Source of the DNA: a bacterium
GTDB taxonomy: Bacteria; Verrucomicrobiota; Verrucomicrobiia; Limisphaerales; RI-55
Assembly (NCBI GenBank): GCA_016124235.1
Contig: WGOC01000017.1
Coordinates: 290,967-354,966, forward strand
DNA length: 64,000 nt
Reading direction: 5' to 3'
Part shown: positions 9,239 through 29,082 of the stretch, one piece after another
Position numbering within the stretch: the first letter of the stretch is position 1
Layout: each line of letters opens with the position of its first letter
The notes under the pieces: model-generated
Databases searched by the model: none
Seen by the model: only the letters and a program-made list of their open reading frames with translations
What the model was told of the DNA's origin: nothing
Program-made: the position numbers and the translations under genes

Positions 9239-10270
9239 TTGTACGTGCCTGTAGTCGGTGCCTCCTGGTATCGAAAGCTCGCCACGGCCGATTCAAATGT
9301 CATACTGCCGCCGGAGATGTCGCATCAGGCGGACAACGTTTCAGCCGGAACCCAGGTGGTTGCGCTGATCGAGGTGCGGGGCACCAACAATTCGTTGGTA
9401 CACCCGCGCGGTGCGGTCGGAGTGGTCACCCGCACACCGGCCGTCGCAGGGGAAAAGTTTCTCATACGATTCCCGGATGGCTTTGAAGGGACGTTCGAAC
9501 GTGATCAATTTGATGTGCTCAAGCATTTCAAAGATCGATTGGGACCGGTCTCCAATGGCACTCCGGCCTTTGATCTCGAATCCTGCATCATCTACCGCTG
9601 CGTGATCGGCTCGCGGGCCTATGGACTCGACACCGACGAATCGGACACCGACCGCCGAGGCGTTTACCTCGCGCCCGCCGATCTCCAGTGGTCGCTTTTT
9701 GGTGCGCCGGAACAATTTGAGGACCACGCCACGCAAAGTTGTTATTGGGAGCTGCAGAAATTTCTGACCATGGCCCTCAAGGCCAACCCGAACATTCTCG
9801 AATGTCTCTGGTCGCCGATGGTCGAGAAAGTCACCGACCTGGGAATGGAGCTTTTGACCATGCGCGAAGCGTTCTTGAGTCAGATGATTTTTCAGACGTT
9901 CAACGGTTACGCCGTGAGCCAGTTCAAGAAGATCGAGCAGGATTTGCGAAACTCGGGCCAGATCAAATGGAAACATGCAATGCACCTACTGCGTCTGCTG
10001 CTCACGGGCGCGGCCACATTGAGAACCGGAACTGTTCCGGTGCGCGTCGAGGCACACCGTGACCGCTTGCTCGCCGTCAAACGTGGCGAATTCGCATGGC
10101 CCGAAGTAGACGCCTGGCGCAGAGAACTCCACCGCGATTTCGAACGCGCCTTGGCCGAAACGAAATTGCCTGAACGCCCAGACTACGACGCGGCAAATAG
10201 GATCTTGATTAAAACGCGGCGAGAGATGGTAACAGCAAAAACGAACTACCACGATTACCCATGCGAATAG
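9239..10270 (+). CDS. Pol-beta superfamily nucleotidyltransferase (RlaP/PF10127-like), paralog 1, with N-terminal extension
   Basis: GSRAYGLDTDESDTDRRGVYLAP fits the GS-x(9-13)-DxD nucleotidyltransferase motif, and the C-terminal LPERPD motif is shared with paralog 2. The track start is TTG 9239, with the first ATG at 9317. The stop TAG 10268-10270 overlaps the start of the next gene. Confidence 0.7.
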   Translation: MYVPVVGASWYRKLATADSNVILPPEMSHQADNVSAGTQVVALIEVRGTNNSLVHPRGAVGVVTRTPAVAGEKFLIRFPDGFEGTFERDQFDVLKHFKDRLGPVSNGTPAFDLESCIIYRCVIGSRAYGLDTDESDTDRRGVYLAPADLQWSLFGAPEQFEDHATQSCYWELQKFLTMALKANPNILECLWSPMVEKVTDLGMELLTMREAFLSQMIFQTFNGYAVSQFKKIEQDLRNSGQIKWKHAMHLLRLLLTGAATLRTGTVPVRVEAHRDRLLAVKRGEFAWPEVDAWRRELHRDFERALAETKLPERPDYDAANRILIKTRREMVTAKTNYHDYPCE

Positions 10271-12207
10271 TCAACCTTAAGATAAACAGCTGGCGCAATT
10301 TCAGGGGTATTTCGTTGGAAATTCCAGAGGGCTCCAAACTGGTATGCTTGGTTGGAGAGAATGGGGCTGGGAAGAGCAATATTCTGGAATTAATTTCCGC
10401 GGCTGCGCATTACTTCGGCATTTCACCTGGCATCCAGATAGCGCGTGGAAATCCTTTCGATGAAGACCACGATGTTGAGATTGTTATCAAGTTTCCGGAA
10501 GCGAGAGAAATTCTGTTAGGCGAGGAATATTGCCAAACAATCATCGACAATTACCCGACATGGGACGGAACATTGCGCCTTGAGAGCTCAAGAGGAACAG
10601 GCACTCGAAACCAGACATTGGTGTATGCGGGCGGTATCGAAAATCCAGAAGTCGCTCGTTCGTTTGCTATAAGCAATCTTATCCCTCAAATCCGACAGAG
10701 AAAGGATACGTTTTACCTCTTTCTTGACGCAGACCGAGCCTACCCTCCGACTAAACTGCGCCGTGAACATTTTGCAGAAGGACTGATGCGTGCGTGGGAT
10801 TCGATCGAATGGCGTAAGAACAAGGCGTTTTTGCCGACACGCCAACTTTACGAAGAATGGATTAATTTTATGCTTTCGGTCGAAGGGCAGGAGGCAACTC
10901 AACATTTTCAAAAGCTTAGAAAAGCGCAAGAACTTTGCAATCCTGCACCGCTATTTACAGACCACTTCCTTTCATTCAAAAACTCTTTGAGAAAGGTGCT
11001 ACAACATTTGCAATTCGAGGGAGTTGATCAACAGCACCAAACAATCCTATTCGATACCGCTGCTGGGCCACTTAACTACAATCAATTGAGCGGCGGTGAA
11101 CGCGAGATCGCATTTCTGATCGGTCAAATCGAAAGATTTCAACTTCGAAGAGGCCTATTGCTAGTTGACGAACCTGAGTTGCATTTGAATTCCGACCTTA
11201 TACGTATTTGGATATCGTTCTTACGAGATACAGTCGAAGACGGGCAAACCTGGATCGCAACTCATTCGTTGGAGGCAGTCGAGGTCGCCGGCAGGATTTC
11301 AACATTTGTTTTGGAACGTTCGGAAACGAGACGAGTTGTTGATTGTGCCAGCTCGTTGGAAAATCGACCGATTCTGAACATTCTTGCCGGCGCCTTAGGC
11401 TCGCCCGCCTTTTCTCTCACAAGATTGCGGTTCGTATTCGTCGAGGGAGACCGCGGCAGAGACGAAAGAGAGCGCTTCCACAAACTTTGCCAGAATGCTC
11501 CGGAAAACCGATTCATGGAAGGAGGGGGCTGCAAAGAAGTGATCGGTAGAGTGAGAGTGGTGAGCGAACTAGCGGCTGAAACCGAAAGTCAGATACGTGT
11601 CGGAGGAATTCTCGATCGGGATTTCCGAACGCAAAGCCAGCTCGACGCGCTCACCAAAGACCTGCCAGTATTCGTTTTGCCGTGCCACGAAGTCGAAAAT
11701 TTATTCCTTCACCCAACTGGTTTGACACAACTTCAAAAAAGAATGGGAGGCACCGAATCTGTGGAGGGATTGCTTCAATTGGCCAGTGACCGGTTTGCAG
11801 GCGGTTGGATATTCCAGCATGCATACACCCAGACCAATGATCTGCCCGAACCGAGCAGAACTCTAAAAGACGGCTTTTGGAATTCTAGCTGGGCTGTTTT
11901 CTCACAGGACATCGAAAGCAAAGTAATGTCACTCATCGCGCTACAACCGGCACTTAATTCGAATGACCGAACGCGCCTCAAGACTGCCTTGGAAATAGCT
12001 GCAAGAATTTATAAAAGAGTCCGACTTGCTGACACCCTCTGGAAAGAATGTTTAGGCAAACAAACATTGGCCGAAATTTCCCGCAAGCTAGGCTTTCGAG
12101 GGCCAGAGATTGTCGAGGGATGCGTGCTGCAAATGTGGGCCAATGATGAAGTGCAAATTCCGGCCGAAGTGGAATCGGTTCGAGATTTTGTAAGCACGCT
12201 CCAATGA
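10261..12207 (+). CDS. OLD-family/PARIS (AriA-AriB fusion)-like protein: N-terminal ABC/AAA_15-21 ATPase plus C-terminal TOPRIM (DUF4435-like) nuclease
   Basis: Walker A GENGAGKSN; ABC signature-like LSGGEREIAF; Walker B LLLVDEPELHLNSD; H-loop IATHS. The C-terminus carries FVFVEGDRGRDE, ILDRDF and HEVENLF, which are TOPRIM E/DxD-type motifs. The gene is about 45% GC against about 60% for its flanks. Confidence 0.8.
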   Translation: MRIVNLKINSWRNFRGISLEIPEGSKLVCLVGENGAGKSNILELISAAAHYFGISPGIQIARGNPFDEDHDVEIVIKFPEAREILLGEEYCQTIIDNYPTWDGTLRLESSRGTGTRNQTLVYAGGIENPEVARSFAISNLIPQIRQRKDTFYLFLDADRAYPPTKLRREHFAEGLMRAWDSIEWRKNKAFLPTRQLYEEWINFMLSVEGQEATQHFQKLRKAQELCNPAPLFTDHFLSFKNSLRKVLQHLQFEGVDQQHQTILFDTAAGPLNYNQLSGGEREIAFLIGQIERFQLRRGLLLVDEPELHLNSDLIRIWISFLRDTVEDGQTWIATHSLEAVEVAGRISTFVLERSETRRVVDCASSLENRPILNILAGALGSPAFSLTRLRFVFVEGDRGRDERERFHKLCQNAPENRFMEGGGCKEVIGRVRVVSELAAETESQIRVGGILDRDFRTQSQLDALTKDLPVFVLPCHEVENLFLHPTGLTQLQKRMGGTESVEGLLQLASDRFAGGWIFQHAYTQTNDLPEPSRTLKDGFWNSSWAVFSQDIESKVMSLIALQPALNSNDRTRLKTALEIAARIYKRVRLADTLWKECLGKQTLAEISRKLGFRGPEIVEGCVLQMWANDEVQIPAEVESVRDFVSTLQ

Positions 12208-12355: not shown

Positions 12356-12571
12356 ATGCTTGACTGGAGCCAGTGCGAACAGGTGGAACGTCACCCGGAC
12401 GTCGTGAGTGGCGCGTGGGTGTTCAAGGGCACGCGCGTTCCGGTGGCGGCGTTTTTTGAAAACTTGGAAGAGGGTGCCTCCGTCGAGGATTCCCTCGAAT
12501 GGTTTCCCGGCGTTTCCCGTGAACAGGTCGTCGCAGTACTTTCCCACGCGGAACACCGTCTCGTGGCGTGA
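12356..12571 (+). CDS. DUF433-family small protein (putative antitoxin)
   Basis: GAWVFKGTRVPV is the DUF433 signature. It is 71 aa and its stop overlaps the start of the next gene (GTGA). Confidence 0.7.
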   Translation: MLDWSQCEQVERHPDVVSGAWVFKGTRVPVAAFFENLEEGASVEDSLEWFPGVSREQVVAVLSHAEHRLVA

Positions 12572-12885
12572 GAATTCTTTTCGATCAGGGCGTGCTGGTG
12601 CCGCTCCGGAGGGAGCTTCCCGAGCACGGCATTTCCACTGCGTTTGAACAGAGATGGTCGGCCTTGAGCAACGGCCTGTTGCTAAGTTCGGCCGAGGAGG
12701 CCGGCTTCGAATCGATGATCACCACCGACAAGAACCTGAGGTATCAGCAAAATCTGGCGGATCGTCGAGTTGCCATCCTGGTACTGCCGACAACGCGCTG
12801 GCCGGTGATCGAGCGACACACGCTGGTTGTAAAAGAGGCGTTGAAAAACCTCCGCTCGGGCGAGTATCGCGAACTATCCTGGTGA
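12568..12885 (+). CDS. DUF5615-family PIN-like protein (putative toxin of the DUF433/DUF5615 pair)
   Basis: MRILFDQGVLVPLRRELPEHGI with an acidic TTDKNL core, 105 aa, GTG start. Together with DUF433 this is the canonical pairing. Confidence 0.65.
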   Translation: MRILFDQGVLVPLRRELPEHGISTAFEQRWSALSNGLLLSSAEEAGFESMITTDKNLRYQQNLADRRVAILVLPTTRWPVIERHTLVVKEALKNLRSGEYRELSW

Positions 12886-12887
12886 TC

Positions 12888-13667
12888 ATGACCATCGACA
12901 CACGCCTTCACAGCATCGTTGCTGCGCAGCCGTATCCGCTGCTGTTTGCCACCGTCAGCGGCGCGCACCTGTATGGTTTTCCGTCCCCGGACTCTGATTT
13001 TGATTTGCGTGGCGCGCATGTGTTGCCGCTCGAAAAGGTCGTCGGTCTGGAGGTGAAGAATGAGACCCTAGAGGACAGTCGGATTATTGATGGTCTGGAC
13101 ATGGACATTGTGAGCCATGACGTGCGGAAGTTCTTTGGCCTGCTCCTGAAGAAGAACGGCTATGTGCTCGAACAACTGTTTTCGCCGCTCATCGTTCACA
13201 CCACGCCTGAGCACGAGGAGTTAAAGGCCCTTGCGGGCGGCCACAAAAAGCAGACGGGCGTAATCACTAAACATCATGCCCATCACTACTTCGGATTCGC
13301 GGAAACGCAGTGGAATTTGTTTTTGAAGGAGTCGCCGCGGCGGGTGAAGCCGCTGCTCTATGTTTATCGTGTCCTGCTCACCGGCGTTCACTTGATGCGC
13401 ACTGGGGTCATCGAAGCCAACCTCGTGACGTTGAATGGGGACTTCCAGCTGCCATACATCGCCGAGTTGATTGAGCGCAAAACGACCGGCGAGAACACGA
13501 CCTTGTCCGACGCCGATCTGTCGTTTCATGAGTCGGAATACCAGCGGCTGCGAGGTCAGTTGCAATCCGCCCACGAAGCCAGCCAACTTCCCGAGCGACC
13601 GGACGAGTCGACGCGGAATGGCTTAAACGATTTGCTCGTACGGATACGTTTGAGTTCCTGTCGCTAG
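12888..13667 (+). CDS. Pol-beta superfamily nucleotidyltransferase (RlaP/PF10127-like), paralog 2
   Basis: MTIDTRLHSIVAAQPYPLLFATVSGAHLYGFPSPDSDFDLRGAHV carries GS-x10-DxD, plus the C-terminal LPERPD motif. The ATG at 12888 lies 3 nt after the DUF5615 stop. The track ORF from 12654 includes a spurious leader. Confidence 0.75.
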   Translation: MTIDTRLHSIVAAQPYPLLFATVSGAHLYGFPSPDSDFDLRGAHVLPLEKVVGLEVKNETLEDSRIIDGLDMDIVSHDVRKFFGLLLKKNGYVLEQLFSPLIVHTTPEHEELKALAGGHKKQTGVITKHHAHHYFGFAETQWNLFLKESPRRVKPLLYVYRVLLTGVHLMRTGVIEANLVTLNGDFQLPYIAELIERKTTGENTTLSDADLSFHESEYQRLRGQLQSAHEASQLPERPDESTRNGLNDLLVRIRLSSCR

Positions 13668-16607: not shown

Positions 16608-16994
16608 GAGGTTATTGGGGATTCAAATGCTGAGACTAGCTTGGCCCCCATTCAAACGCACCAGGAATTTTGAAAACCCTCAATTGTTATCGGGCGCGAA
16701 CCAAACCATACGGCCGCATTGACTCACACCTGGCGCAAATGGCTCTCGACAGTAAGTCCGTTTCCCGGGTCCAGTGTGTTGGTCACGCGCATATCATGAA
16801 GTTCGTCGGCGTTTCGCGTGCGGCGCCGGCGCGTCACATCGAAAGTCGATAATGAAGGCATCGTGTTGCGACGACTCACTGTTTTGACACGCAGCACCCA
16901 GACAAACAGCGCTGAATCGAGTGGTGATTGCGACTGGCGAAGCAGCGCGGAATTGCGCTTCCCCGTCAGGCGCGAGCAGACTAAAAAGCCGCGC

Positions 16995-18974
16995 ATGCGC
17001 ACCCACAGTTGGCTTTCCTCGTCGCCATTTCTGATCGCCATCACGATCTGGGGAACCTCCCTCTCCGCGCAGACGGCTTACAACGCGCAAGAGGCGTTCG
17101 CGCCCGATTTTTATCCTTATGCTGCCAACGCCGTTCGTGGAGCCGACGGTGCGCCCGGGCCGGACTACTGGCAGAATGAAGCCAACTACCAAGTGGCCGC
17201 CACGCTCGACCCGCAGACAAAACATCTCACCGGCGAGGTCGTAATTGACTACGTCAATCACAGCCCGGTAAGCCTGTCGTTTCTCTGGCTGGAACTGGAT
17301 CAGAACATAGATGGCGTTGATTCCCGCTCTCATCAGATGAATCAACCCGCAAGCGAAACGTCCACCACCAACGGATTCCATTTTGCGGTGGTGGAGCAAT
17401 CCGAACGCGGCCAGTGGTCGCCCGCCGACTACCTGGTCGACGACACCCGGATGCAAATTCGACTGGCGCAGCCGCTCCGCGCTGACGGAGGCAAAATCCG
17501 TCTCCGCTTCAAATATGATTATCAATTGCTGAACTCGGGTGGTGGCGGGCGTTCAGCGATTCTTTCGACCACCAACGGACCCATTTACGAGGTTTCGTAT
17601 TGGTATCCTCGAATGTGCGTTTTCGACGATGTGCTTGGTTGGGATACCCTCCCATTTCTCGGGAGCGGAGAATTCTATGCGGACTATGGAAACGTGGATT
17701 ACCGAGTAACCGTTCCCCGGGGAATGGTCGTGGCCGGCGCGGGCGAGCTCATCAACGCGGACGAAGTCCTGCCACGGAAAGTAATAGACCGTCTCGAACA
17801 GGCGCGGAATTCTGATGAGACGGTTTTCATTCGCTCGGCCGACGAAGTCCGCGAGGCAGCAGCGCAGCCGGCGATCGACGAAACGGTCACCTGGCATTTT
17901 CGCATGAAAGGGACGCGCGACGTGGCCTGGGCGGCATCGCGGGCATTTGTCTGGGATGCTGCACGAATCAATCTACCGAACAACCAACGCACCTTGGCGA
18001 TGTCGTTTTATCCGGTCGAAAGCCTAGGCACCAATTCGTGGGGGCGCGCCACCGAGTATCTGAAGCACTCGGTGGAGATCTTTTCGAAGAGCTGGTTCGT
18101 TTACCCGTATCCGGTGGCGATCAACGTCGCCGGGCACGTCGGCGGCATGGAGTTTCCAGGACTGACCTTCGACGGTTGGAAGGCCGAAGGTAAGTCGCTG
18201 TGGAGTCTGCTCTCGCACGAGATCGGTCATACATGGTTTCCCATGGTGGTGGGTTCCAATGAACGGCGGCACGCCTGGATGGATGAAGGATTCAACACGT
18301 TCGTCGACATCTATGCGTCCGAAGAATTTAACCACGGCGAATACGCACCCAAACGCGACGGAGAATACGCCCCCAAAGGCGGCAATCCGGCCGAGGAAAT
18401 CGTACCGCTCATGATGAGTTCTAACGTTCCGCCCATCATGTCGCTGGCGGACACGTTTTCGGGTCCGGACCTGCATCCGGTGGAGTATTTTAAAACCGCT
18501 TTCGGACTGGTGCTGCTCCGGGAAGTCATTCTCGGACACGAACGATTCGATTACGCGTTTCGCCGCTACATCGCCGACTGGGCGTTCAAGCATCCGACGC
18601 CGTGGGACTTCTTCCGGGCGATGGACAACGGCGCGGGCGAGGACCTTTCGTGGTTCTGGCGCGGCTGGTTCGAGAACAACTGGCGGTTGGACCAGGCCGT
18701 GGAAAAAGTGAGTTACGTGAAAGATGATCCCAGCCAGGGCGTGGAAATCACAATCGCCAATTTGGAGAAACTCCCGATGCCCGTGCTCGCCGAGATCACC
18801 GACGCCAACGGACGCCGCCAGCGAATTCGTTTGCCAGTGGAAACCTGGCAGCGCGGTGCGACGGCCACGTTCAAGATTGACACGACCAGCAAATTAACTT
18901 CGGTGATTCTCGACCCCGATCATGTATTGCCCGACATCGATCGGAGCAACAACACTTGGAAGGCCGAGCCGTGA
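16995..18974 (+). CDS. M1-family zinc metallopeptidase (aminopeptidase N-like), secreted
   Basis: HEIGHTWFPMVVGSNERRHAWMDEGFNTF is the M1 HExxH-x18-E motif plus the GAMEN-like region. A signal peptide begins at the internal ATG 16995. Confidence 0.85.
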   Translation: MRTHSWLSSSPFLIAITIWGTSLSAQTAYNAQEAFAPDFYPYAANAVRGADGAPGPDYWQNEANYQVAATLDPQTKHLTGEVVIDYVNHSPVSLSFLWLELDQNIDGVDSRSHQMNQPASETSTTNGFHFAVVEQSERGQWSPADYLVDDTRMQIRLAQPLRADGGKIRLRFKYDYQLLNSGGGGRSAILSTTNGPIYEVSYWYPRMCVFDDVLGWDTLPFLGSGEFYADYGNVDYRVTVPRGMVVAGAGELINADEVLPRKVIDRLEQARNSDETVFIRSADEVREAAAQPAIDETVTWHFRMKGTRDVAWAASRAFVWDAARINLPNNQRTLAMSFYPVESLGTNSWGRATEYLKHSVEIFSKSWFVYPYPVAINVAGHVGGMEFPGLTFDGWKAEGKSLWSLLSHEIGHTWFPMVVGSNERRHAWMDEGFNTFVDIYASEEFNHGEYAPKRDGEYAPKGGNPAEEIVPLMMSSNVPPIMSLADTFSGPDLHPVEYFKTAFGLVLLREVILGHERFDYAFRRYIADWAFKHPTPWDFFRAMDNGAGEDLSWFWRGWFENNWRLDQAVEKVSYVKDDPSQGVEITIANLEKLPMPVLAEITDANGRRQRIRLPVETWQRGATATFKIDTTSKLTSVILDPDHVLPDIDRSNNTWKAEP

Positions 18975-19325
18975 CTTTGCGGTTCCCTGGCCTCTCCAGA
19001 CACGGGGTAACAGGACTTCGATTGAGACCACTCGCGGGCACTTATTCGGCGGCGCCTTTGGATCGCGGAATTCTAATGCTGCACAACGAGACCACATCAC
19101 GCCGCCGCCCCAAAGAAATGGCACCGGTCTTTCCAACGCTGTTCGATGGAACCCGCGTCGTAGCCTGTAACGGCTGGCAACAGAGCCCGGAACTTACAAA
19201 GCGAGACGAATCATCCGCTCCCGAAGACGCGGGCATAGCCGGGTGTTTATCTCAAGCCGAAGTCCGATGGCGAGCTTCGGTGCATTCGGCTTTCCTGCAC
19301 CGCTATTCCGATGATCACCGAGATC

Positions 19326-19736
19326 TTATCCAGCATGGCCGAGAGTGGATCGGGGCCGGAGGGCATCGGCAGAGTTGCTTCCAACTTCTCTTCCGTTCTT
19401 GCACGCTACCTTCCGTGTAGCCGAGCTTCCGCAGTATGGCATGTAAACCGCGCCACAACCACCTTCACCGATCTTCTGGAGTATCTTGTAGCGCCCAATC
19501 TTCTGACCAATCGTTTCATCGGGAACTTCGGTGAACTCGATCTTCATCGTGGCCTTGGCAGCAGCAGCTGGTTCTGCCAGCGCGCCGCTCGTTTGTTCGT
19601 GCGCGGCAAGGAGCGCTTCGATGCGCATACGTAGAGTCGTGTCATCGCCGCAGACAGCTTTGAGGAAGGCGTCTCGTTCCGACGCCGGTTTTTCCAGCAC
19701 CATTCCAAACAAGACCTCTTCGCGATTCACATTCAT
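19326..19736 (-). pseudogene. Truncated 5' fragment (about 100 homologous codons) of an ECF-associated Ser/Thr kinase paralog
   Basis: MNVNREEVLFGMVLEKPASERDAFLKAVCGDDTTLRMRIEALLAAHE...IGRYKILQKIGEGGCGAVYM parallels the N-termini of both intact kinases up to the glycine loop. Homology then stops and the remaining 37 aa are unrelated. Confidence 0.6.
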
Positions 19737-19752
19737 GGCTGCGCTAGCTTCC

Positions 19753-20448
19753 TTATTTCGCAGATATCGGCGCTGCACACTTGGCGGACCGCGAGCGCAG
19801 CCACTCCTCGTATTGCATCACAATATCGGCGACGGGGACGGCGCAGGTGATGCAGACCCAAACGACCGTCTCGATCATCGACGGCCCCAGCTTTTCCAGT
19901 CCGGTCACTCCGAGAATCACGCGCACGGTCACAAAGACCACCGGCCCAAGGAACAGGCTGCGGGTCATCCACTGGCGATGTTGTTGAACCTTGCCCTTGA
20001 GAATCAGGACGAAGGCGATGAGGGTCGTCACCATCCACAACATTCCTTGGGTTGCTGCAGCCAGAGTGAAGGATTGCGTCCCGCCGGTCCGTTCCTGGAA
20101 GAACTGAATATAGGCTCCCGTCAGACCGGCGATGATTGCTCCAACTACGTAAATCCTCCCGGCGATGCGGTGCAGTCCGGTATAACGCCGGCGGAGACGT
20201 TCCGAGAACTGCATGGGTGCCAGCACAAACGCGCAGGCCCCGCCCAAGCCATGCACCAGTAGCCACCATTTGAACGGCTGGTAGTGGTTCCAGACCGGTG
20301 CTTGCGGATCCACAATAAACCGTTCGTTGTGCTGGAGCACGTAGATCGCCATCAGTCCAAAGAGGGCAAACAACAGATTTTTCGGTTGCAGCCAGGAGCG
20401 GGATTGGGGTTGTGCGGGAGCGCTGGGAATGGACGTGGCCAAGTTCAT
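19753..20448 (-). CDS. DUF2306-like polytopic membrane protein
   Basis: Six predicted transmembrane helices. The ATG is at 20448. It lies between the two kinase 5' remnants. Confidence 0.5.
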   Translation of the reverse strand: MNLATSIPSAPAQPQSRSWLQPKNLLFALFGLMAIYVLQHNERFIVDPQAPVWNHYQPFKWWLLVHGLGGACAFVLAPMQFSERLRRRYTGLHRIAGRIYVVGAIIAGLTGAYIQFFQERTGGTQSFTLAAATQGMLWMVTTLIAFVLILKGKVQQHRQWMTRSLFLGPVVFVTVRVILGVTGLEKLGPSMIETVVWVCITCAVPVADIVMQYEEWLRSRSAKCAAPISAK

Positions 20449-20478
20449 TGGTTTATCGGGTGTTTCATGGGTTAAAGG

Positions 20479-20586
20479 TTATTGAATCTGTTGTTGCCGT
20501 AAACGGCATTTGAGATATGCGGCGCGTTCAGACGCCAGTTTTTCCAGCGCCAACGCAAACAGGACTTCTTCGCGATTGGGGTTCAT
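20479..20586 (-). pseudogene. 35-codon remnant of a Ser/Thr-kinase 5' end (MNPNREEVLFALALEKLASERAAYL...)
   Basis: It is about 85% identical at the nucleotide level to the 5' end of the 19326..19736 fragment (compare 19670-19736). Confidence 0.45.
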
Positions 20587-20615: not shown

Positions 20616-23480
20616 TCACTTCGCGTCCGGCTCGGGCAGGGGGATGCCTTTGGCCTTGAAAAGCGCTTCGGCTTCACGTTGCCTCGATTCCGCCTGATAC
20701 GTTTTGACCCAAGGCTTAACCCAAGGTCCCTCGCCGCCGCGGTCATGCCCCGGCTTGTCCCCAAGTGCCCGCTTCAACTGGTCGCGGGCTTGCGCGAAGT
20801 CCCGGGGGGGCTCCTCCAAGCGCCCGAGTTCGGCACAAAGCATCGCCCTGATAAACCGTGAGGAAGCCTGTTGGGCTGGATCCGTCAGTGTGACTCCGGT
20901 TCCCGGCCGAGAGCTGGGCGTGCCAAAAAATCTTTCTATCAATTCCAGGCCTTCGGGGTATCGATGTTCGCGATAGGCCAGGACGGCGCGGACGGAGTTG
21001 ATTTGGAGCTTGATAAAGATCGAACCGTCATCGGCCCGGTCCATCAAGGCACGTGCAATGGCCAGGGTCTCCTCGTCCATGGGTTGCTGATACAGGCCGG
21101 CCACAACCAGGAGGGCCGCTTTTCCCTCTACGGTTGAGGTGAAGCGAAGGAAGCAGGTCTGCCTGAGTCGCTCGAAGGAATCATGGTCGCCGATGGCGTT
21201 AGCTACGACGGCGGCGTTAAACCAATCCATGACATCGGAAAGCCGGTTGGTGGCCACGGCCTCCAGAATCGGCAGAGCTTCCCGAGCGTTGCCGGAGCGG
21301 GCCAGGACGGCTCCGCGCAGCGCATCCAGTCGGACCAGATCTGTCCCGGAACCGCCGCGACTCACCAGCAACCGGCGTTGCTCTTCCAGCATTGCGGTCG
21401 CCTCCGCGAAACGGTCCTGCCGGCAAAGCGTGTTGCTCAATTGCACAATCAGCTGCAGGTATTCGGCCCGGACTTCGGGGTCCAGGTAATTTGGCTTCCC
21501 CAAGTATTCAAGGGCGACCCGTTCGGCCCGCACGGGATCTGTTGGCCCCACTACTTCAACGTATTTGGCCGCCACTTGGATTCGCAAGGAAACCGAGGCC
21601 GGGGTATTGAGGAGCAGTTCGTGAGCTTCCACAATCGCCGCTTCCGCCTCGTTCGTTCTGCCGACGAATCCAAACCAGTTCGCCTGGTAGAACCTGCAAC
21701 TGGCAGCGAACTCTTTGGCAGGCGGTTTCCGCCCCATGAACTCCGCATAGAGGCGTCCCAAATCCTTCATGGCCTGTTCCTGCCCCGGGACCTGGTCCCC
21801 GGCCGCCCAAAGACGGGTTTCAGGAAGAGCAATTCTTATCTCGTCACGCGGCTCGCTGAGTTGCCCGTCAGTGACTTTCGGCAGGAGCCGGTTCATCAGC
21901 TCCGCCTGGCGCAACGCACCTTGGGCATCGTTCAGATCAATCAGGGCGGCGCGCAATTTCCAACGCAGCCTGAGTTCTGCCGCCGGGGTATTGGACAGGG
22001 ACGACGACGCCAGGACATCCGCTTTGCTGATCAACTCCCGCGCACCGCGGACATTCCCTTGCTGCAGCAGCGAGGGCAACTGTTGCGATACCAGGCTGTC
22101 GATGAAGGTCGTCACGGTGTCCGCCCGGACGGATTGCGTGCGCTCCCGTTCCCGTGCGGCTCGCTCGCGCAGGAACGCGGCGGTGGCGAGTCCCAGACCC
22201 AGAACCAGGGCCAGCGCAACGCTGGCGACCCCGACGGTGGCGGCCTTGTTCCTTCGCACCATCTTCTGGAGCCGGTAAAGCTGGCTGGGCGGCCGCGCGA
22301 CGACGGGTTCGTTGTCGAGATGTCGCTTGATGTCGGCGGCGAGACCGTTGGCCGATTCGTAGCGGCGGGAACGATCCTTCTCGAGACACTTCATCACGAT
22401 CCAGTCGAGGTCGCCCTTGAGCTGGTGCAAGAGTCGTGAGGTGTCCACCGAGCGGCGCTTGGCGGTGGTAGTGAGGTCGTCACCATGCAACGTCGCCAGC
22501 TTGGTCGAGGGGCGAGCGGGTTCTCTCTCCCGGATGGTCTTGCGCATCGCATCCAGTCCCATCGACATCAACTCCCGACCGTCAAACGGTGTTCTTCCCG
22601 TGAGCAGTTCGTAGAGCAGCACCCCCAGGCTGTAGATGTCGCTCCGCGTATCAATATCCAGCCCGCTCATCTCCGCCTGTTCCGGACTCATGTACGCCGG
22701 GGTCCCGATGAACTGGTGCAATTGCGTGTAAACCGTCGCGTCGGTCAACCGCCCCTCGGTTGCCTTGGCGATCCCGAAGTCGATCACCTTCGGCACCGGC
22801 ACGCCATCGTGCAGCGTCACCAGGATGTTCGAGGGCTTGATGTCCCGGTGGATGATGCCCTTCTGGTGGGCGTGCTGGATGGCGTGGCAGACCTTGATGA
22901 ATAGATCCAATCGTTCCTTGGTGGAGATCTTCTCCTGGTCGCAGTACTCCGTGATCTTGATCCCCCGCACCAGTTCCATCACGAAGTAGGGACGGCCCTG
23001 TTCTGTCGTTCCTGCATCCAGCACCTTGGCGATGTTGGGATGGTCCATCATCGCCAGCGCCTGGCGCTCGGCTTCGAAGCGGGCGACGACCTGTTTGGTG
23101 TCCATCCCCAGCTTGATGACCTTTAGCGCGACTCTCCTTCTTACCGGCTCGGTCTGTTCGGCCACATAGACCACGCCACAACCGCCTTCGCCGACGCGTT
23201 CCAGCAGTTTGTAACGTCCCAAGGTCTGGCCGATCGCTTCGTCGGGCATATCCACCATATCCACACTGATCGTTGCCCGCGCCGCTTCAGGTTGACCATC
23301 CAACACTGAATCTGCCCGCTCGTGCGCCGCCAGCAACGCTTCCAGGCGCTGACGCAAACCGGCATCATCACCGCATTCGCGATTCAGGAACGCGGCTCGC
23401 TCATCTCCGGACTTCGTCACGGCCAGCGCAAACAAGGCAGCTTCTTTTTCCTGGGATGCAGGCATGGGCTCTGTGTTCAT
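20616..23480 (-). CDS. Ser/Thr protein kinase with N-terminal ECF-sigma-associated helical motif and long TPR-like C-terminal region (cassette 1)
   Basis: Kinase motifs: [33 protein letters not shown] and [11 protein letters not shown] transmembrane segment sits around residue 420. The C-terminus is helical and repeat-rich. Confidence 0.9.
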   Translation of the reverse strand: MNTEPMPASQEKEAALFALAVTKSGDERAAFLNRECGDDAGLRQRLEALLAAHERADSVLDGQPEAARATISVDMVDMPDEAIGQTLGRYKLLERVGEGGCGVVYVAEQTEPVRRRVALKVIKLGMDTKQVVARFEAERQALAMMDHPNIAKVLDAGTTEQGRPYFVMELVRGIKITEYCDQEKISTKERLDLFIKVCHAIQHAHQKGIIHRDIKPSNILVTLHDGVPVPKVIDFGIAKATEGRLTDATVYTQLHQFIGTPAYMSPEQAEMSGLDIDTRSDIYSLGVLLYELLTGRTPFDGRELMSMGLDAMRKTIREREPARPSTKLATLHGDDLTTTAKRRSVDTSRLLHQLKGDLDWIVMKCLEKDRSRRYESANGLAADIKRHLDNEPVVARPPSQLYRLQKMVRRNKAATVGVASVALALVLGLGLATAAFLRERAARERERTQSVRADTVTTFIDSLVSQQLPSLLQQGNVRGARELISKADVLASSSLSNTPAAELRLRWKLRAALIDLNDAQGALRQAELMNRLLPKVTDGQLSEPRDEIRIALPETRLWAAGDQVPGQEQAMKDLGRLYAEFMGRKPPAKEFAASCRFYQANWFGFVGRTNEAEAAIVEAHELLLNTPASVSLRIQVAAKYVEVVGPTDPVRAERVALEYLGKPNYLDPEVRAEYLQLIVQLSNTLCRQDRFAEATAMLEEQRRLLVSRGGSGTDLVRLDALRGAVLARSGNAREALPILEAVATNRLSDVMDWFNAAVVANAIGDHDSFERLRQTCFLRFTSTVEGKAALLVVAGLYQQPMDEETLAIARALMDRADDGSIFIKLQINSVRAVLAYREHRYPEGLELIERFFGTPSSRPGTGVTLTDPAQQASSRFIRAMLCAELGRLEEPPRDFAQARDQLKRALGDKPGHDRGGEGPWVKPWVKTYQAESRQREAEALFKAKGIPLPEPDAK

Positions 23481-23555: not shown

Positions 23556-23783
23556 ATGACAACGGTGAAAACCATGAACGATTCCGACTTCAAATTCTAC
23601 TGTTCCTGCTGCGACCAACCGCTGAAGTGTGATCCGTGCCACGCGGGGCGGCAGATCCAATGTCCCGCCTGCAATCACCTGATCCGCATTCCCAGCCCGC
23701 CTCCCGGAACCGGGTTTACGCATGTGCAACCGGAGTCGGGCCGCACGTGGGATACTTTTGTCCCCAAGGGACGCCAGGCGTGA
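23556..23783 (+). CDS. Small zinc-ribbon protein (75 aa) in the sigma-kinase spacer of cassette 1
   Basis: MTTVKTMNDSDFKFYCSCCDQPLKCDPCHAGRQIQCPACNHLIRIP has a CxxC...CxxC...CxxC arrangement. The second sigma-kinase cassette has only a 108-bp spacer and no comparable ORF. Confidence 0.3.
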   Translation: MTTVKTMNDSDFKFYCSCCDQPLKCDPCHAGRQIQCPACNHLIRIPSPPPGTGFTHVQPESGRTWDTFVPKGRQA

Positions 23784-24374
23784 TTACCGTTTCGAGTGCT
23801 CGTCAGGACTCGATGGTCCACCGCGCATTTCCACCGACAACCAGGCCCGGGCATAGGCCCACCATTGCTTGGCGGTCGGAATAGCAATACCCAAGGCCGT
23901 GGCGGTTTCATTAAACGTCATCCCGACAAAGTACCGCAGCTTGACCAGTTCGGCTTTGCGGGGATCGACGGCGGCCAGCCTTTCCAACGCTTCGCTGACC
24001 CGCAGCAGTCCCTCATCATCGGTAATCGGCGAAGGGATCTCGACCTCATCGAGGCCCAGTCGCTCCGCCCCACCACCACGCTTGGCGGCCAGACGCCGAC
24101 GGGCGCGCTCAACCAAAATCCGGCGCATGGCCTCGGCAGCAGCCGCAAAAAAGTGGGCGCGATTTTGCCAGGCTGGTTGGGCGTCGCCACCGAGTCGAAG
24201 CCAGGCTTCGTGAACGAGGGCGGTCGGCTGCAGCGTCTGGCCGTCGCGTTCGTTGGCCATCCGGCTGGCCGCCAGTTTACGCAATTCGTCGTAAACCAAC
24301 GGCAACAATTCTTCTGCCGCCTGTAAATCACCGGAATCAATTGCGCTGAGAAGCGTGGTCACGTCGCCGGGCAT
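23784..24374 (-). CDS. ECF-subfamily RNA polymerase sigma-70 factor (Planctomycetes/Verrucomicrobia type), cassette 1
   Basis: MPGDVTTLLSAIDSGD...ALVHEAWLRL (region 2) and RYFVGMTFNETATALGI (region 4 helix-turn-helix). It is transcribed ahead of the kinase on the same strand. Confidence 0.85.
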   Translation of the reverse strand: MPGDVTTLLSAIDSGDLQAAEELLPLVYDELRKLAASRMANERDGQTLQPTALVHEAWLRLGGDAQPAWQNRAHFFAAAAEAMRRILVERARRRLAAKRGGGAERLGLDEVEIPSPITDDEGLLRVSEALERLAAVDPRKAELVKLRYFVGMTFNETATALGIAIPTAKQWWAYARAWLSVEMRGGPSSPDEHSKR

Positions 24375-24520: not shown

Positions 24521-25366
24521 TTACGTGCCGATGGCGTAGGCCGCCTTGCCGTCGGGCAGACGCCAGATGCCGGCATCGTCCGTGGTGCGGGGCAGCTGGC
24601 TCGCCAACAAATCTCGAACGCGTTGGTAAGCTGGCAGGACCGAGGAACTGACTTCCGTTTCGGCCGCGGCCACAAGTTCCCGCCGCCTGGCCCCGCTCAC
24701 CTCGTCATCCAACCTGGTCAGGCGAGCGTTCAAGGTGGTGACGAACGGATTGGAGTCCGGCGCGTTCGCCGTGAACTTGTCGATCTGTTCGATGGAGCGC
24801 TCGACAATGAACTTCGGCGGGAGAAACCCGGCGGTGGCAGCTGCCCGCGCTTCGGCGATGCCTTCATCGAGCAACGGACCGACCCGGGCCAGCCGGACAA
24901 GATAGTTCTCCGCGTCACGCTCGTTTCGGATCGGATGAACCGTGGTTAGAAAGTGAATGAGCGCCACATGCACTCCGCGAAAATGCTCAAACATGAACTT
25001 GTGCCGCGCAAACTTCTCCTCCTCCACAGCCTGCTCGCAGGTCCAACGAATCACCGCCGCCGAAATGCGCTGGCCCGGGCTGAGCCGGTCGTCCGGATAA
25101 CGTTTCAACTCATTCAAGCCGCGCCGGGCGAGCGCGGCGTCCTCATGGGCCGCCTTCACGCCCCGGTCCAGCACCAGCCGCCGGTCGATGGCGTCCTGCT
25201 CGGCACCTTCGAAGTATTGGGTGCGTGTGGCGAGCTGCGGATGAGCGCGAGCCCAGTCGGCGGCGAACTGGTCGGCCCATTGATCGAACGACGGTTCGGC
25301 AGCGTGGACGACGAGAGTCGCGAGGAGGCCGAGCGCGAAAACGGTGATGGTTGTTTTCTTCAACAT
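24521..25366 (-). CDS. DUF885-family protein, N-terminal half only (possibly truncated)
   Basis: Signal peptide plus RNERDAENYLVRLARVGPLLDEGIAEARAAATAGFLPPKF, which matches the DUF885 N-terminal region. Full-length members are about 580 aa. No continuation was found in any frame downstream. Confidence 0.45.
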   Translation of the reverse strand: MLKKTTITVFALGLLATLVVHAAEPSFDQWADQFAADWARAHPQLATRTQYFEGAEQDAIDRRLVLDRGVKAAHEDAALARRGLNELKRYPDDRLSPGQRISAAVIRWTCEQAVEEEKFARHKFMFEHFRGVHVALIHFLTTVHPIRNERDAENYLVRLARVGPLLDEGIAEARAAATAGFLPPKFIVERSIEQIDKFTANAPDSNPFVTTLNARLTRLDDEVSGARRRELVAAAETEVSSSVLPAYQRVRDLLASQLPRTTDDAGIWRLPDGKAAYAIGT

Positions 25367-25384: not shown

Positions 25385-28165
25385 TTATTGAAGCTTCGCC
25401 TTGTAGGCATCGATTCGGGCTTCGAGTTTCGACAGCTTGTCGCGCCAGACGGCGGCTTTCTCCGGTTCCTTCTTCAATTCATAAAGCCGTACCAGCCGCG
25501 CCAAGTTCTGCGGAATCGGAACCAGGGAGGCCGCTCGCAAGCCTCCGCCCCAGGCAACATCCTGCTTTTCGTGAATCTGCGCGCAATGGAGGAGCAGTTC
25601 CTCCGCTTCGTTCAACTCACTCGTCCCCGGGTTCGGTTTCTCGATCAAACAACCGCCGAGGAGGGACAAGGCCCAGGCGTAATTCGCCTGGTCAAAGCCG
25701 GTGAGCGCCTGCGGGCTGCTCAGCGCTTCGTAGGTTTTAACCGCTTTGCGCAGCGTCCGCTCCGCCGTGACCAGGTCGCCGGTTTGCTGCGACCACAGGC
25801 CTTCCCACATCAGGGCACGGGCGGTGTTGACGCTGTTGGGTCCGGAGGCGCTCCGGCAGATTTCGACGAGTTGCCTCACTAAAGGTGCGGCTCCCTTTGG
25901 GTCCTGGAGGCAGGCCAAATAGGTCGCAACCAGGGTATCCATCAGCAATACGGTCGAGGAATGTGCCTCGCCGAAGACGGCCTTGTAACGTGGCAACAGC
26001 CCCTCAAGGGCCGCGGCGCCTTCTTGATACCGGAACTGAAAAATCAACAGGACCGCGCTCCATCGTTCGGCCTCGAGGGTATTGGGGTGGTCCGGCCCAA
26101 GCTTGTCGTTGAACACCTGAATGGCGTGCTTCAGGAGCGGCCCGGCTTCGCCGACGCGAAGATTACGGGAGTAATCCTCCCCCAGTGCCTTGTCCACTTC
26201 AGCCATCACCACGTCGTCCGCGCCGATCAAGGGGGAGTGCCTGGCTGTTTGGCGGAGCTCCTCCAACTGCCGATGCATTTCCTTCAAATTTCCAAAATAG
26301 AATTGGAGGAATGCCAGCCCGAGGCGGGCTCGGATGCTGTCGGGATGTCCTTCTCCCTGCACCCGCGTGCGAAACGCCGCGGCGCTTTGCAGGAGACGGC
26401 TGGCCTCGACCAAGTCACGATCGGTCCGGCGCAGTTCCACCAACGCTGCCGCCAGCGCCTCCTGGGTGACGGGAATCTCGAGATCTGTGTTCGGCAAGCC
26501 GCTCTCCAAAACCGGCAACGCCTCGCTTAATTGCTTCACGGCCTTGTTGTGGAGCCCGATCCCCCCGTAAACACGCCCCGCCATGCTGCGGATGCGCGCT
26601 TCGACCAGCGGAGACTTGTGGGCCTTCCGATCCAGTTCCTGACACGCGCGGTCCAAAACAGTTTGTATGGTCAAACCGCCAGGAGAGTTTTTTCCGGGAT
26701 TGAATTGAGAGAGAACGTCCCCCCACAGGAAATCGTAGACGGCCTGGGAGTCGGCTTCTGCAGTCACCGCCCGCTCGCGCGCTGTCTCGGCATCCTTCTG
26801 TTTTTCCTGAGCCAGAATTCTCTGCTTTAGCTCGGCGCGCCGAGCCGCTTCCGCAAGCTGGCTTGCCCGGGTGGCGCGAACGGCTTGAAACGTGGCAAAA
26901 CTAGCTGCCAGAACCAGCAATGCCGCAATCACTGCCGCGACGCGCATATACTTGCGATTCCTGCGGTAGAACTTGTGGAACTGGTAGCTGAACGTTGGCG
27001 CGGCTGCGGATACGGGTTCGTTGTCCAAATGTCGGCGGATGTCCGACACCAGTCCATTGACCGTTTCGTAGCGATGCGTCCGGTCCTTCTCCAACGCCTT
27101 CATCACGATCCAATCCAGATCCCCCTGAAACTGCTTGCGCAGGGCCACGACTTCCACGCTTCGCTTGTCGGCGGTAACCGTGAGTTCCTCACCCTGCATG
27201 GTGCTCATGCGCGTGCTCGGCTTCGGTGGTTCCTTCTCCGCGATCACCCGCTGCATCTCGCCGTAGCCCATGCTCAACAACTCTTTGCTTGGAAACGGCG
27301 TCGTGCCGGTGAGAAGTTCGTAAAGCAAAACCCCCAGCGAATAAACGTCCGTCCGCGTGTCCACGTCCAGTTTGCTCATCTCCGCCTGTTCGGGACTCAT
27401 GTACGCCGGTGTCCCGATCATCTGGGCGTAGTTGGTAAAGAGCGTCTTCTCGGTGAGCTTCTGGTTCGTCGCCTTGGCTATACCGAAGTCGATCACCATC
27501 GGGTGCGGCTCGCCGTCATTGAGCGTCACCATCACGTTGCTCGGCTTGATGTCCCGATGGATCACCCCCTTCTGGTGCGCGTGCTGGATGGCCTGACAGA
27601 CCGGGATGAAAAGGTTGAGCCGTTCCTGCGTGGAGAGCTTGTTCTTGTCGCAGTACTCGGTGATCGGAACGCCGCGCACCAGTTCCATGACGAAGTAGGG
27701 ACGGCCGGTGTCGGTGGCTCCGGCGTCCAGCACCTTGGCGATGTTAGGATGGTCCATCATCGCCAGTGCCTGGCGCTCGGCCTCGAACCGGGCGACGACC
27801 TGTTTGGTGTCCATGCCAAGCTTAATGATCTTGAGAGCGACTTTGCGAACAACGGGCTCAGTCTGCTCGGCCATGTACACCACACCCATCCCCCCTTCAC
27901 CGACTTTCTGCAAAAGCTTGTAGCGGCCGATCATCGTGCCGGGTTGTTCCAGTACCGGCGTAGCCGCCAGGGTGGATGCGCTCACGGTGTCACCTTGATC
28001 GAACAAGCTGTCCGGGTTCTTCATCGCATCCAGAAGTGATTCCACTTCCTTTCGTAATTCGGCATCGGGGCAGGCTCGTTCGAGATAATCGTGCCGCTGA
28101 GCATCCGTTTCCAAAGCGGCGGCGGTTTCAAAGATGGCTTCCAGTTTTTCGCGTCGATTTTTCAT
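25385..28165 (-). CDS. Ser/Thr protein kinase with TPR-like C-terminal region (cassette 2)
   Basis: Kinase motifs: [34 protein letters not shown] and [10 protein letters not shown]. It is a paralog of 20616..23480. Confidence 0.9.
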
Positions 28166-28273: not shown

Positions 28274-28852
28274 TCAGGCAGTGCCACGGGGCTCGTCGTC
28301 CCGCTGTATTTCCCGGCTGAGCCACGCCTTCGCGAAGTTCCAATGCCGTTGAACCGTTTTGTCCGAGCATCCCATGATCGCCGCAATCTCCGCCACGCCC
28401 AGCCCCGCGAACACCCGCAACTTTACGATTTCAGCCTTCTCGGGATCGTCATTTGCGAGCCGTTCCAGATAGTCGTTGACGCGAAGACACTTCTCGTCGT
28501 TTTGAGCGATGGGCAGGTCCATCGCGTCGAGTGGCACGCGCTCCATCCCGCCGCCATGACGGATCCTTTGCTTGCGCCGGGCGTTGTCGACGAGGATGCG
28601 GCGCATTGCTTCGGCGGCGGCGCTGAAAAAGTGTTCGCGCCCCCGCCACTGTTGTCGGTCCGAACCGGCCACGCGGAGCCAGGCATCGTGGACCAGGGCG
28701 GTTGCTTGAAGTGTCTGACCAGGCTTTTCGTTCGCCATCTTGTGGGCCGCGACTCGGCGGAGTTCCTCGTAAACCAGCGGCAATAATTTCTCCGCAGCAT
28801 TCGAATCGCCGGAATCAATCGCGCTGAGCAGCTGGGTGACGTCGCCGGGCAT
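28274..28852 (-). CDS. ECF-subfamily sigma-70 factor, cassette 2
   Basis: MPGDVTQLLSAIDSGDSNAAEKLLPLVYEELRRVAAHKMANE is a paralog of 23784..24374. The ATG is at 28852. The track ORF from 28999 adds a spurious leader. Confidence 0.85.
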   Translation of the reverse strand: MPGDVTQLLSAIDSGDSNAAEKLLPLVYEELRRVAAHKMANEKPGQTLQATALVHDAWLRVAGSDRQQWRGREHFFSAAAEAMRRILVDNARRKQRIRHGGGMERVPLDAMDLPIAQNDEKCLRVNDYLERLANDDPEKAEIVKLRVFAGLGVAEIAAIMGCSDKTVQRHWNFAKAWLSREIQRDDEPRGTA

Positions 28853-29082
28853 GGACGAACGGTAATCAGCCTTGCCGCATTTACGAGCAACAACTTTCAC
28901 ACGGCCCGGCCCGACTCGGAAAGGAACGGAGTCACGAATGTTTTTCGTTCGTTCACGCACGACTCCGGTTCTCCGGAGCCAATCGAATCGAATAAGCAAA
29001 GGGGTTGGTTGCGTCGCTCAATGCATCTCACACCGTTGACTTTGCAGGCCGCCAAAAGCGCTTTAAAATTACCGCCCACCAA

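Follow-up and report, generated by a model that had tools for sequence, protein, structure and literature searches.

The two short kinase-like open reading frames (ORFs) that flank a DUF2306 gene in this bacterial contig are very probably what is left of two neighbouring kinase genes, both largely removed by separate deletions that spared the DUF2306 gene. An earlier note on this DNA had described a 35-codon stub and a longer fragment, one on each side of that gene; both were found in place on the minus strand, and Pfam puts DUF2306 between them. The note had also taken the two pieces to be 5' remnants of kinases belonging to sigma-kinase cassettes, a reading that is upheld by their collinearity with the kinases of relatives. 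Its further proposal, that an insertion or a recombination event had split one third kinase and duplicated its start, did not survive the comparisons described below. Throughout, the window is the whole 64,000-nucleotide (nt) stretch that was analysed, not the feature under study.

The window carries two ECF sigma genes, both assigned to PF07638, each with a co-directional receptor-type kinase gene downstream (Table 1). ECF sigma2 and K2 form the second of these sigma-kinase cassettes. K2 has an N-terminal motif, a kinase domain, a transmembrane (TM) helix and a TPR region, and its Pfam matches are Pkinase (E 2.4e-46) and TPR_12. In the 373-kb contig of the NCBI metagenome-assembled genome (MAG), the proteins of the locus are MBI1177562-566, and the stub is left without annotation. 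The arrangement resembles the known modules of ECF sigma factors and Hanks-type kinases, which include kinase-associated ECF groups without anti-sigma factors, such as ECF43 and ECF59-62 (PMC7826278). As in those modules, a sigma gene is followed by a receptor kinase gene, here twice; no gene for an anti-sigma factor was noticed in the part examined, and the remnants come from the same kinase family. The remnants differ from such modules in that they have no sigma gene of their own.

Table 1. Positions of the features discussed, numbered within the window
Feature	Position	Strand	Remarks
ECF sigma1	28274-28999	minus	
Kinase K1	25385-28165	minus	receptor-type Hanks kinase with TPR region
Gene unrelated to the cassettes	24521-25366	minus	
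ECF sigma2	23784-24374	minus	PF07638; NCBIfam TIGR02999, 209 bits
Kinase K2	20616-23480	minus	intact, 954 aa, receptor-type Ser/Thr kinase; MBI1177564.1
Stub ORF	20479-20586	minus	35 codons
Stub, 5' part	20496-20586	minus	start codon and ~29 codons of kinase N-terminal motif (MNPNREEVLFALALEKLASERAAYLK-AVYG)
Stub, 3' part	20472-20495	minus	last codons and native stop of upstream WD40-type kinase; (G)NNRFNNL-stop without the extra T
DUF2306 gene	19753-20448	minus	PF10067
Fragment ORF	19326-19736	minus	136 codons
Fragment, kinase part	19444-19736	minus	apparent 5' remnant of downstream kinase Z, start codon through glycine loop, 97 codons
Fragment, tail	19326-19443	minus	apparent read-through, PYCGSSATRKVACKNGREVGSNSADALRPRSTLGHAG-stop, not recognisably kinase
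Non-coding stretch	18975-19325		~350 nt, no credible ORF; lineage-specific; between the fragment and the M1 peptidase gene
M1 peptidase gene	16818-18974	plus	convergent with the fragment

Two further observations were made in the window. A Cys-rich ORF of about 70 aa (23556-23783, plus strand) lies antisense between ECF sigma2 and K2 and carries a zinc-ribbon-like pattern, CxxC...GRQIQCPxCNHLI. It has no Pfam or NCBIfam hit; counterparts occur in L007 (4435-4631, same position) and in L169 (7781-7987, 57%, E 2e-20), where the ORF adjoins a stub on the same strand, and it may be part of the sigma-kinase module. Elsewhere, positions 10261-12207 (plus strand) encode a 648-aa ATPase-plus-DUF4435 protein whose best PADLOC match is AriAB, the fused PARIS anti-phage defence protein (E 4.8e-28). 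This gene is flanked by genes for RlaP-type nucleotidyltransferases (~9239-10270 and 12654-13667) and by a DUF433 gene (12356-12571).

The DUF2306 gene encodes a membrane protein of 231 aa (PF10067, E 7.9e-22, 78.4 bits against a cut-off of 31.6) and is the conserved core of the locus. Its exact protein sequence occurs only in the source MAG and in the Logan assembly of run SRR10063242, both with the same layout. Kinase-flanked homologues with 68 to 90% amino acid identity were traced to contigs L002-L008 and L169-L172 and to the contig carrying P0128, all relatives compared being metagenome contigs. In L002, L003 and L004 (90%), the order is kinase X, kinase Y (1138 aa, WD40), a 33-nt spacer, DUF2306, a 13-nt spacer and kinase Z; the Z of L002 is at least 410 aa long and runs off the contig end. 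L007 and L008 (70%) have an ECF sigma gene, a TPR kinase, DUF2306 and a WD40 kinase, in that order. In L170 (84%) and L171 (80%), a WD40 C-terminal region precedes DUF2306 and a kinase start follows it; these two contigs stop before any kinase domain, and their WD40 regions are presumably the end of a kinase. An upstream kinase precedes DUF2306 in L005, as does a WD40 C-terminal region in L172; in L169 (68%), a kinase of at least 655 aa comes after the gene. Starts of a downstream kinase are seen in L004, L169, L170 and L171. The full order of kinase, DUF2306 and kinase is found in L002/L003, in L007/L008 and in the contig carrying P0128, complete kinases on both sides being possible, and one sigma gene can precede two or three kinases with DUF2306 embedded among them (L007, L002).

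Across all related loci (L002-L008 and L169-L172), DUF2306 lies directly after a receptor Ser/Thr kinase gene or its remnant, with a spacer of 3 to 33 nt. A second kinase usually comes after it, either 13 nt further on or overlapping it by 4 nt, and the whole lies downstream of an ECF sigma gene. In a scan of genome contigs that served as the outgroup, DUF2306 homologues of at most 64% identity, mostly from Acidobacteriota with a few from other phyla, showed no linkage to kinases. Because the relatives' genes are kinase flanked and the more distant homologues are not, the position of DUF2306 between kinase genes is the native arrangement of this clade and not an insertion in the genome of the window. 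The dN/dS ratio of DUF2306 is 0.17 to 0.27 against 7 relatives, and the gene stays under purifying selection. No inverted repeats, transposase or integrase genes, tRNA genes or composition shift were found around it, and a promoter and terminator scan gave nothing above shuffled expectation. The arrangement suggests that DUF2306 and the kinases may be functionally tied.

The window is collinear with L002 across the DUF2306 gene and into both pieces. By blastn, positions 20494-19444 match L002 5759-6810 with 90.9% identity over 1055 nt, in a block whose edges lie 14 nt ahead of the kinase Y stop and 290 nt inside kinase Z. Within this block the identity is strongly mosaic: segments of ~99% (20223-19954 and 19745-19483), which cover the start of Z and the centre of DUF2306, alternate with segments of 72 to 87%. 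Such a pattern points to recent exchange, by recombination or gene conversion, between strains or between paralogous copies of the locus, so the loci compared could be paralogous rather than strictly orthologous. K2 is not the orthologue of kinase X of L002, since their C-termini differ.

The stub joins the two ends of a kinase gene. It runs from an ATG at 20586 to a TAA at 20481-20479 and reads MNPNREEVLFALALEKLASERAAYLKCRLRQQQIQ up to that stop. Its frame is shifted after codon 26 by a single extra nucleotide, the T at 20508. With this T left out, the codons read AVYG (compare AVCG in the fragment) and the frame ends in ...AVYGNNRFNNL-stop, beyond the stop of the actual ORF. The ending GNNRFNNL-stop resembles the C-termini of the upstream kinases in relatives, namely, GDNKFNNP-stop in L170 and L171, GDNKF-stop in L002 and GENKPRNP-stop in L005. 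Both by alignment and by blastn, the match starting at 20494, the 3' end of the stub is collinear with the C-terminal codons, stop and downstream spacer of these kinases, and, as in the relatives, a conserved spacer, here 23 nt, leads from the tail to the DUF2306 ATG. The edge of the collinearity lies within 2 nt of the point at which the N-terminal homology of the stub ends (20496). No part of the kinase domain is present in the stub, which consists of ~29 pre-kinase codons and the 8-codon C-terminal end of a WD40-type kinase. Because the opening ~29 codons of a kinase here run straight into the final 8 codons and stop of the upstream kinase, the stub appears to be an internal-deletion remnant of the upstream WD40-type kinase gene, here called U.

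At its 5' end, the stub is a family-typical kinase start that lies 30 nt after the K2 stop. At the nucleotide level this start is 78% identical to that of Z, 72% to that of the L007 Z, 69% to that of the L002 Y and 67% to that of K2. Z is therefore the closest of the starts available, in a comparison that extends over ~90 nt only and in which the differences are not decisive. The best match is to Z and not to Y, which leaves three options for U: an N-terminus like that of Z, gene conversion by Z, or a more complex duplication.

The fragment begins with an ATG at 19736 and ends with a stop at 19326. Its homology to K2 and K1 reaches GEGGCGAVYM (19444) and, weakly, VACK (19398); it is 48% identical at the amino acid level to residues 12-120 of K2, the match ending just after the glycine loop. 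Aligned with Z of L002, it departs at 2 positions within the first 252 nt and at 11 within the last 39 nt, and past 19444 the alignment collapses. The glycine-rich loop GxGxxG is present as GEGGCG (residues 91-96), aligned to K2, K1 and the L002 Z. The fragment has no HRD catalytic loop, DFG motif or activation segment and no Pfam Pkinase domain, its tail (19326-19443) has no Pfam hit and no homologues, and no further kinase pieces lie downstream of it in any frame. These features indicate that the 136-codon ORF consists of the first 97 codons of Z followed by 39 unrelated read-through codons. The truncated Z start is very close to a functional one; dN/dS between the fragment and the L002 Z is uninformative, as there are too few differences. 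The drop in identity at 19483 was considered as a possible chimera of Z and another paralogue, joined at the GRYKIL codons. This idea was set aside, since the same mosaic runs through the whole L002 alignment and the drop needs no separate event.

Beyond the kinase part of the fragment, positions 18975-19443 gave no match in the fetched loci (blastn and tblastx), in the window (blastn), in Pfam (all frames of 18975-19450) or in Rfam. A search of 18960-19460 for scraps from the C-terminal ends of Z-type kinases or of the genes at L173 returned only noise, apart from one sigma-like motif. This piece (19100-19156, minus strand) is 19 residues long, reads AGSIEQRWKDRCHFFGAAA-stop and matches W..R.HFF..AA, the most conserved motif in the ECF sigmas of this locus. 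It scores 28.5 bits, a score that none of 1000 dinucleotide shuffles reached (best, 28.1), and is undetected by Pfam; it is probably a scrap of a further ECF sigma gene, placed between the fragment and the M1 peptidase gene. At L173, the locus with the closest M1 peptidase orthologue (88% amino acid identity), synteny stops at 18980, and different genes lie beyond, including another sigma-WD40 kinase pair; L173 was rejected as the source of 18981-19443 because the shared synteny extends only to 18980. Metagenome contigs scanned with the M1 peptidase yielded only relatives of at most 63% identity, none with conserved neighbours.

The stub and the fragment are clearly similar to each other. In a blastn search against the whole window, stub positions 20577-20496 match fragment positions 19727-19647 with 79.3% identity over 82 nt, including one 1-nt gap (E 2.7e-14). 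The earlier figure of about 85% over about 70 bp was thus slightly too high, while the similarity itself is real; ungapped from the ATG, identity is 78% over 78 nt (repeat search, family D1), and the best 69 nt are ~81% identical. At the protein level, 19 of 26 residues match, and both pieces open with the conserved pre-kinase motif (MNPNREEVLFALALEK... in the stub and MNVNREEVLFGMVLEK... in the fragment). The dot-plot comparison that the note had suggested with the 5' ends of the intact kinases gave much weaker matches, and it did so for the fragment only. The fragment is 69 to 70% identical to the K2 5' end over ~80 nt and 73% identical to the K1 5' end over 64 nt, whereas the stub matches neither of them significantly at the nucleotide level and shares only 12 of 21 residues with K2. 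The similarity between the two pieces starts exactly at the ATG, and the DNA upstream is unrelated: the spacer before the fragment is common to the Z genes of relatives, and the stub instead follows the K2 stop. Similarity from the ATG only, with differing upstream DNA, is the pattern of two paralogous genes and not one that a duplicated segment should leave. The 79% likeness of the pieces is best read as the ordinary similarity of a conserved N-terminal motif in two paralogous kinases, with no duplication made by an insertion.

On this evidence, we propose that the ancestral minus-strand order was ECF sigma2, K2, kinase U (WD40 type), DUF2306 and kinase Z, and a layout of the type U, DUF2306 and Z is kept in related bacteria. 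An internal deletion of ~3 kb would have cut out U between about codon 30 and the final 8 codons, so that what stays, 23 nt ahead of DUF2306, is a mini-ORF with U's own start and stop region. The junction falls at a GGC codon, and the string GGCGA occurs on both sides, in the TGC GGC GAT GAC of the N-terminal motif and in the GGC GAC AAC of the C-terminal tail. A microhomology-mediated or slippage deletion is therefore likely, the microhomology being deduced from relatives and not from the actual ancestor. A later 1-nt insertion would have shifted the frame of the U remnant. A second rearrangement would have taken all of Z beyond the glycine loop, so that 97 true codons now read into unrelated sequence. 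With the catalytic loop and the DFG motif lost, neither piece should be able to act as a kinase. We infer this loss of function, as well as the mechanism, order and timing of the events, from the layout of the pieces. Both pieces resemble the deletion pseudogenes known from paralogous arrays: the start is retained (in the stub also the stop), the gene is intact at the same position in relatives, catalytic parts are lost, a frameshift and a read-through are present, and the neighbouring gene is under selection. There is no difference in kind; here, the same two flanking kinases have been hit repeatedly and independently around a conserved DUF2306 gene.

The split of a single third kinase by insertion of, or recombination with, DUF2306 or a DUF2306-bearing block, with the first ~80 nt of the kinase gene duplicated, is by comparison quite improbable. 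The stub start is closer to Z than to the other kinase starts available, and a variant in which an unequal crossover joined codon 30 of Z to the tail of the upstream kinase, with later loss of the extra copy, would give exactly the observed junction. However, relatives hold DUF2306 between two kinases, both of which can be full length (complete in L002 and L007). The stub tail comes from the upstream kinase and the fragment comes from Z, so two different genes would have been truncated rather than one split. A duplicated start fits poorly with an identity of only 78% that begins at the ATG and with a 3' end that belongs to the upstream kinase; in its first 252 nt, Z has only 2 differences from an intact relative, and yet Z and the stub have diverged by 22%. 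Upstream of the stub there is neither a DUF2306 3' end nor a spacer, as would be left by a tandem duplication. The locus contains no mobility genes and no repeats other than the stub-fragment pair, and a single deletion suffices where this model calls for at least two events. Insertion of a mobile element with target-site duplication does produce direct repeats flanking a gene, a likeness to the present pair. Here, though, the repeats are 82 nt long and 79% identical and start at both start codons, terminal inverted repeats and a transposase or integrase are missing, and relatives with both flanking genes intact still carry the supposed insert. Stronger doubt attaches to an assembly artefact, in which reads from different strains or paralogous kinases would have been joined at conserved motifs into false truncations, and this we consider extremely improbable. 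The sequence is a metagenome-assembled genome, the kinase paralogues share ~80% nucleotide identity, and the identity to L002 is mosaic. Against this, the same arrangement with identical proteins is present in the NCBI MAG contig and in the separate Logan assembly, the junctions at 20495 and 19444 run into unique sequence and not into another kinase body, and similar scars occur in unrelated samples.

Truncation of the two kinases that flank DUF2306 appears to have happened independently in several lineages. L169 has an in-frame 48-codon stub derived from a kinase upstream of its DUF2306 gene; this stub is of a different N-terminal subtype, has its junction farther from the stop and has no specific sequence in common with the window stub beyond the family motif. 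In L172, Z is reduced to ~16 codons. L005 retains a vestige of ~30 nt in which the ATG has become ATA. On the contig carrying P0128, Z is 256 aa long and is followed by a convergent gene, as judged from gene calls only. A database search with the fragment turned up a large number of short ORFs for kinase N-termini, with varied truncation points, which argues against a conserved family of short proteins. A comparable case was observed at an unrelated locus, L175 6001-6523 (also in L176-L178), where the second kinase after a sigma-WD40 kinase pair has been gutted. There, 100 N-terminal codons that end after the glycine loop are joined out of frame to the last 76 TPR codons, and this deletion allele occurs on six contigs from several samples. 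The break follows GEGGCGxVY, almost the same codon as in the window fragment.

The short ORFs could also be functional. That the stub, the 136-aa ORF or both are retained mini-proteins, acting as a docking or regulatory helix or as an ORF that translationally couples DUF2306, is unlikely. This reading would account for the native start codon and spacing kept in both pieces, for the stop of the stub ORF 30 nt before the DUF2306 ATG and for the in-frame stub at the same place in the unrelated lineage L169; moreover, the 136-aa ORF is called by the NCBI and Logan gene callers, and short N-terminal kinase ORFs are common on long contigs. It is countered by truncation points that vary among lineages, by the frameshift of the window stub relative to both parental frames, by the resemblance of the window and L169 stubs in the family motif alone and by the tail of the 136-aa ORF, a read-through without homologues; no family of uniform length was found. 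A narrower version, which we rate as somewhat less probable still, holds that the mini-ORFs beside DUF2306 in the window and, independently, in L169 are kept by selection, either as coupling or anti-polarity ORFs or as decoys made of the N-terminal helix. If so, deletions in the flanking kinases would survive only where they leave a short ORF running from the kinase's own start to just upstream of DUF2306. Under the coupling version, this ORF would maintain translational coupling or avoid polarity, and under the decoy version, a freed helix of ~30 to 100 residues would titrate the partner of the N-terminal motif, perhaps the ECF sigma.

Two separate deletions thus remain the preferred account of the locus. 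They amount to ordinary gene decay, of a kind already known and of little importance in itself, and both ORFs would be better annotated as pseudogene fragments. The earlier note had seen in them an ongoing birth and death of regulatory modules; the death is visible in these remnants of lost kinases, and nothing at this locus bears on birth. More broadly, the locus illustrates how arrays of paralogous Ser/Thr kinases lose members by internal deletions, repeatedly and independently around the same conserved gene. That gene, a DUF2306 gene embedded among kinases downstream of an ECF sigma, provides a lead on the unknown function of DUF2306.
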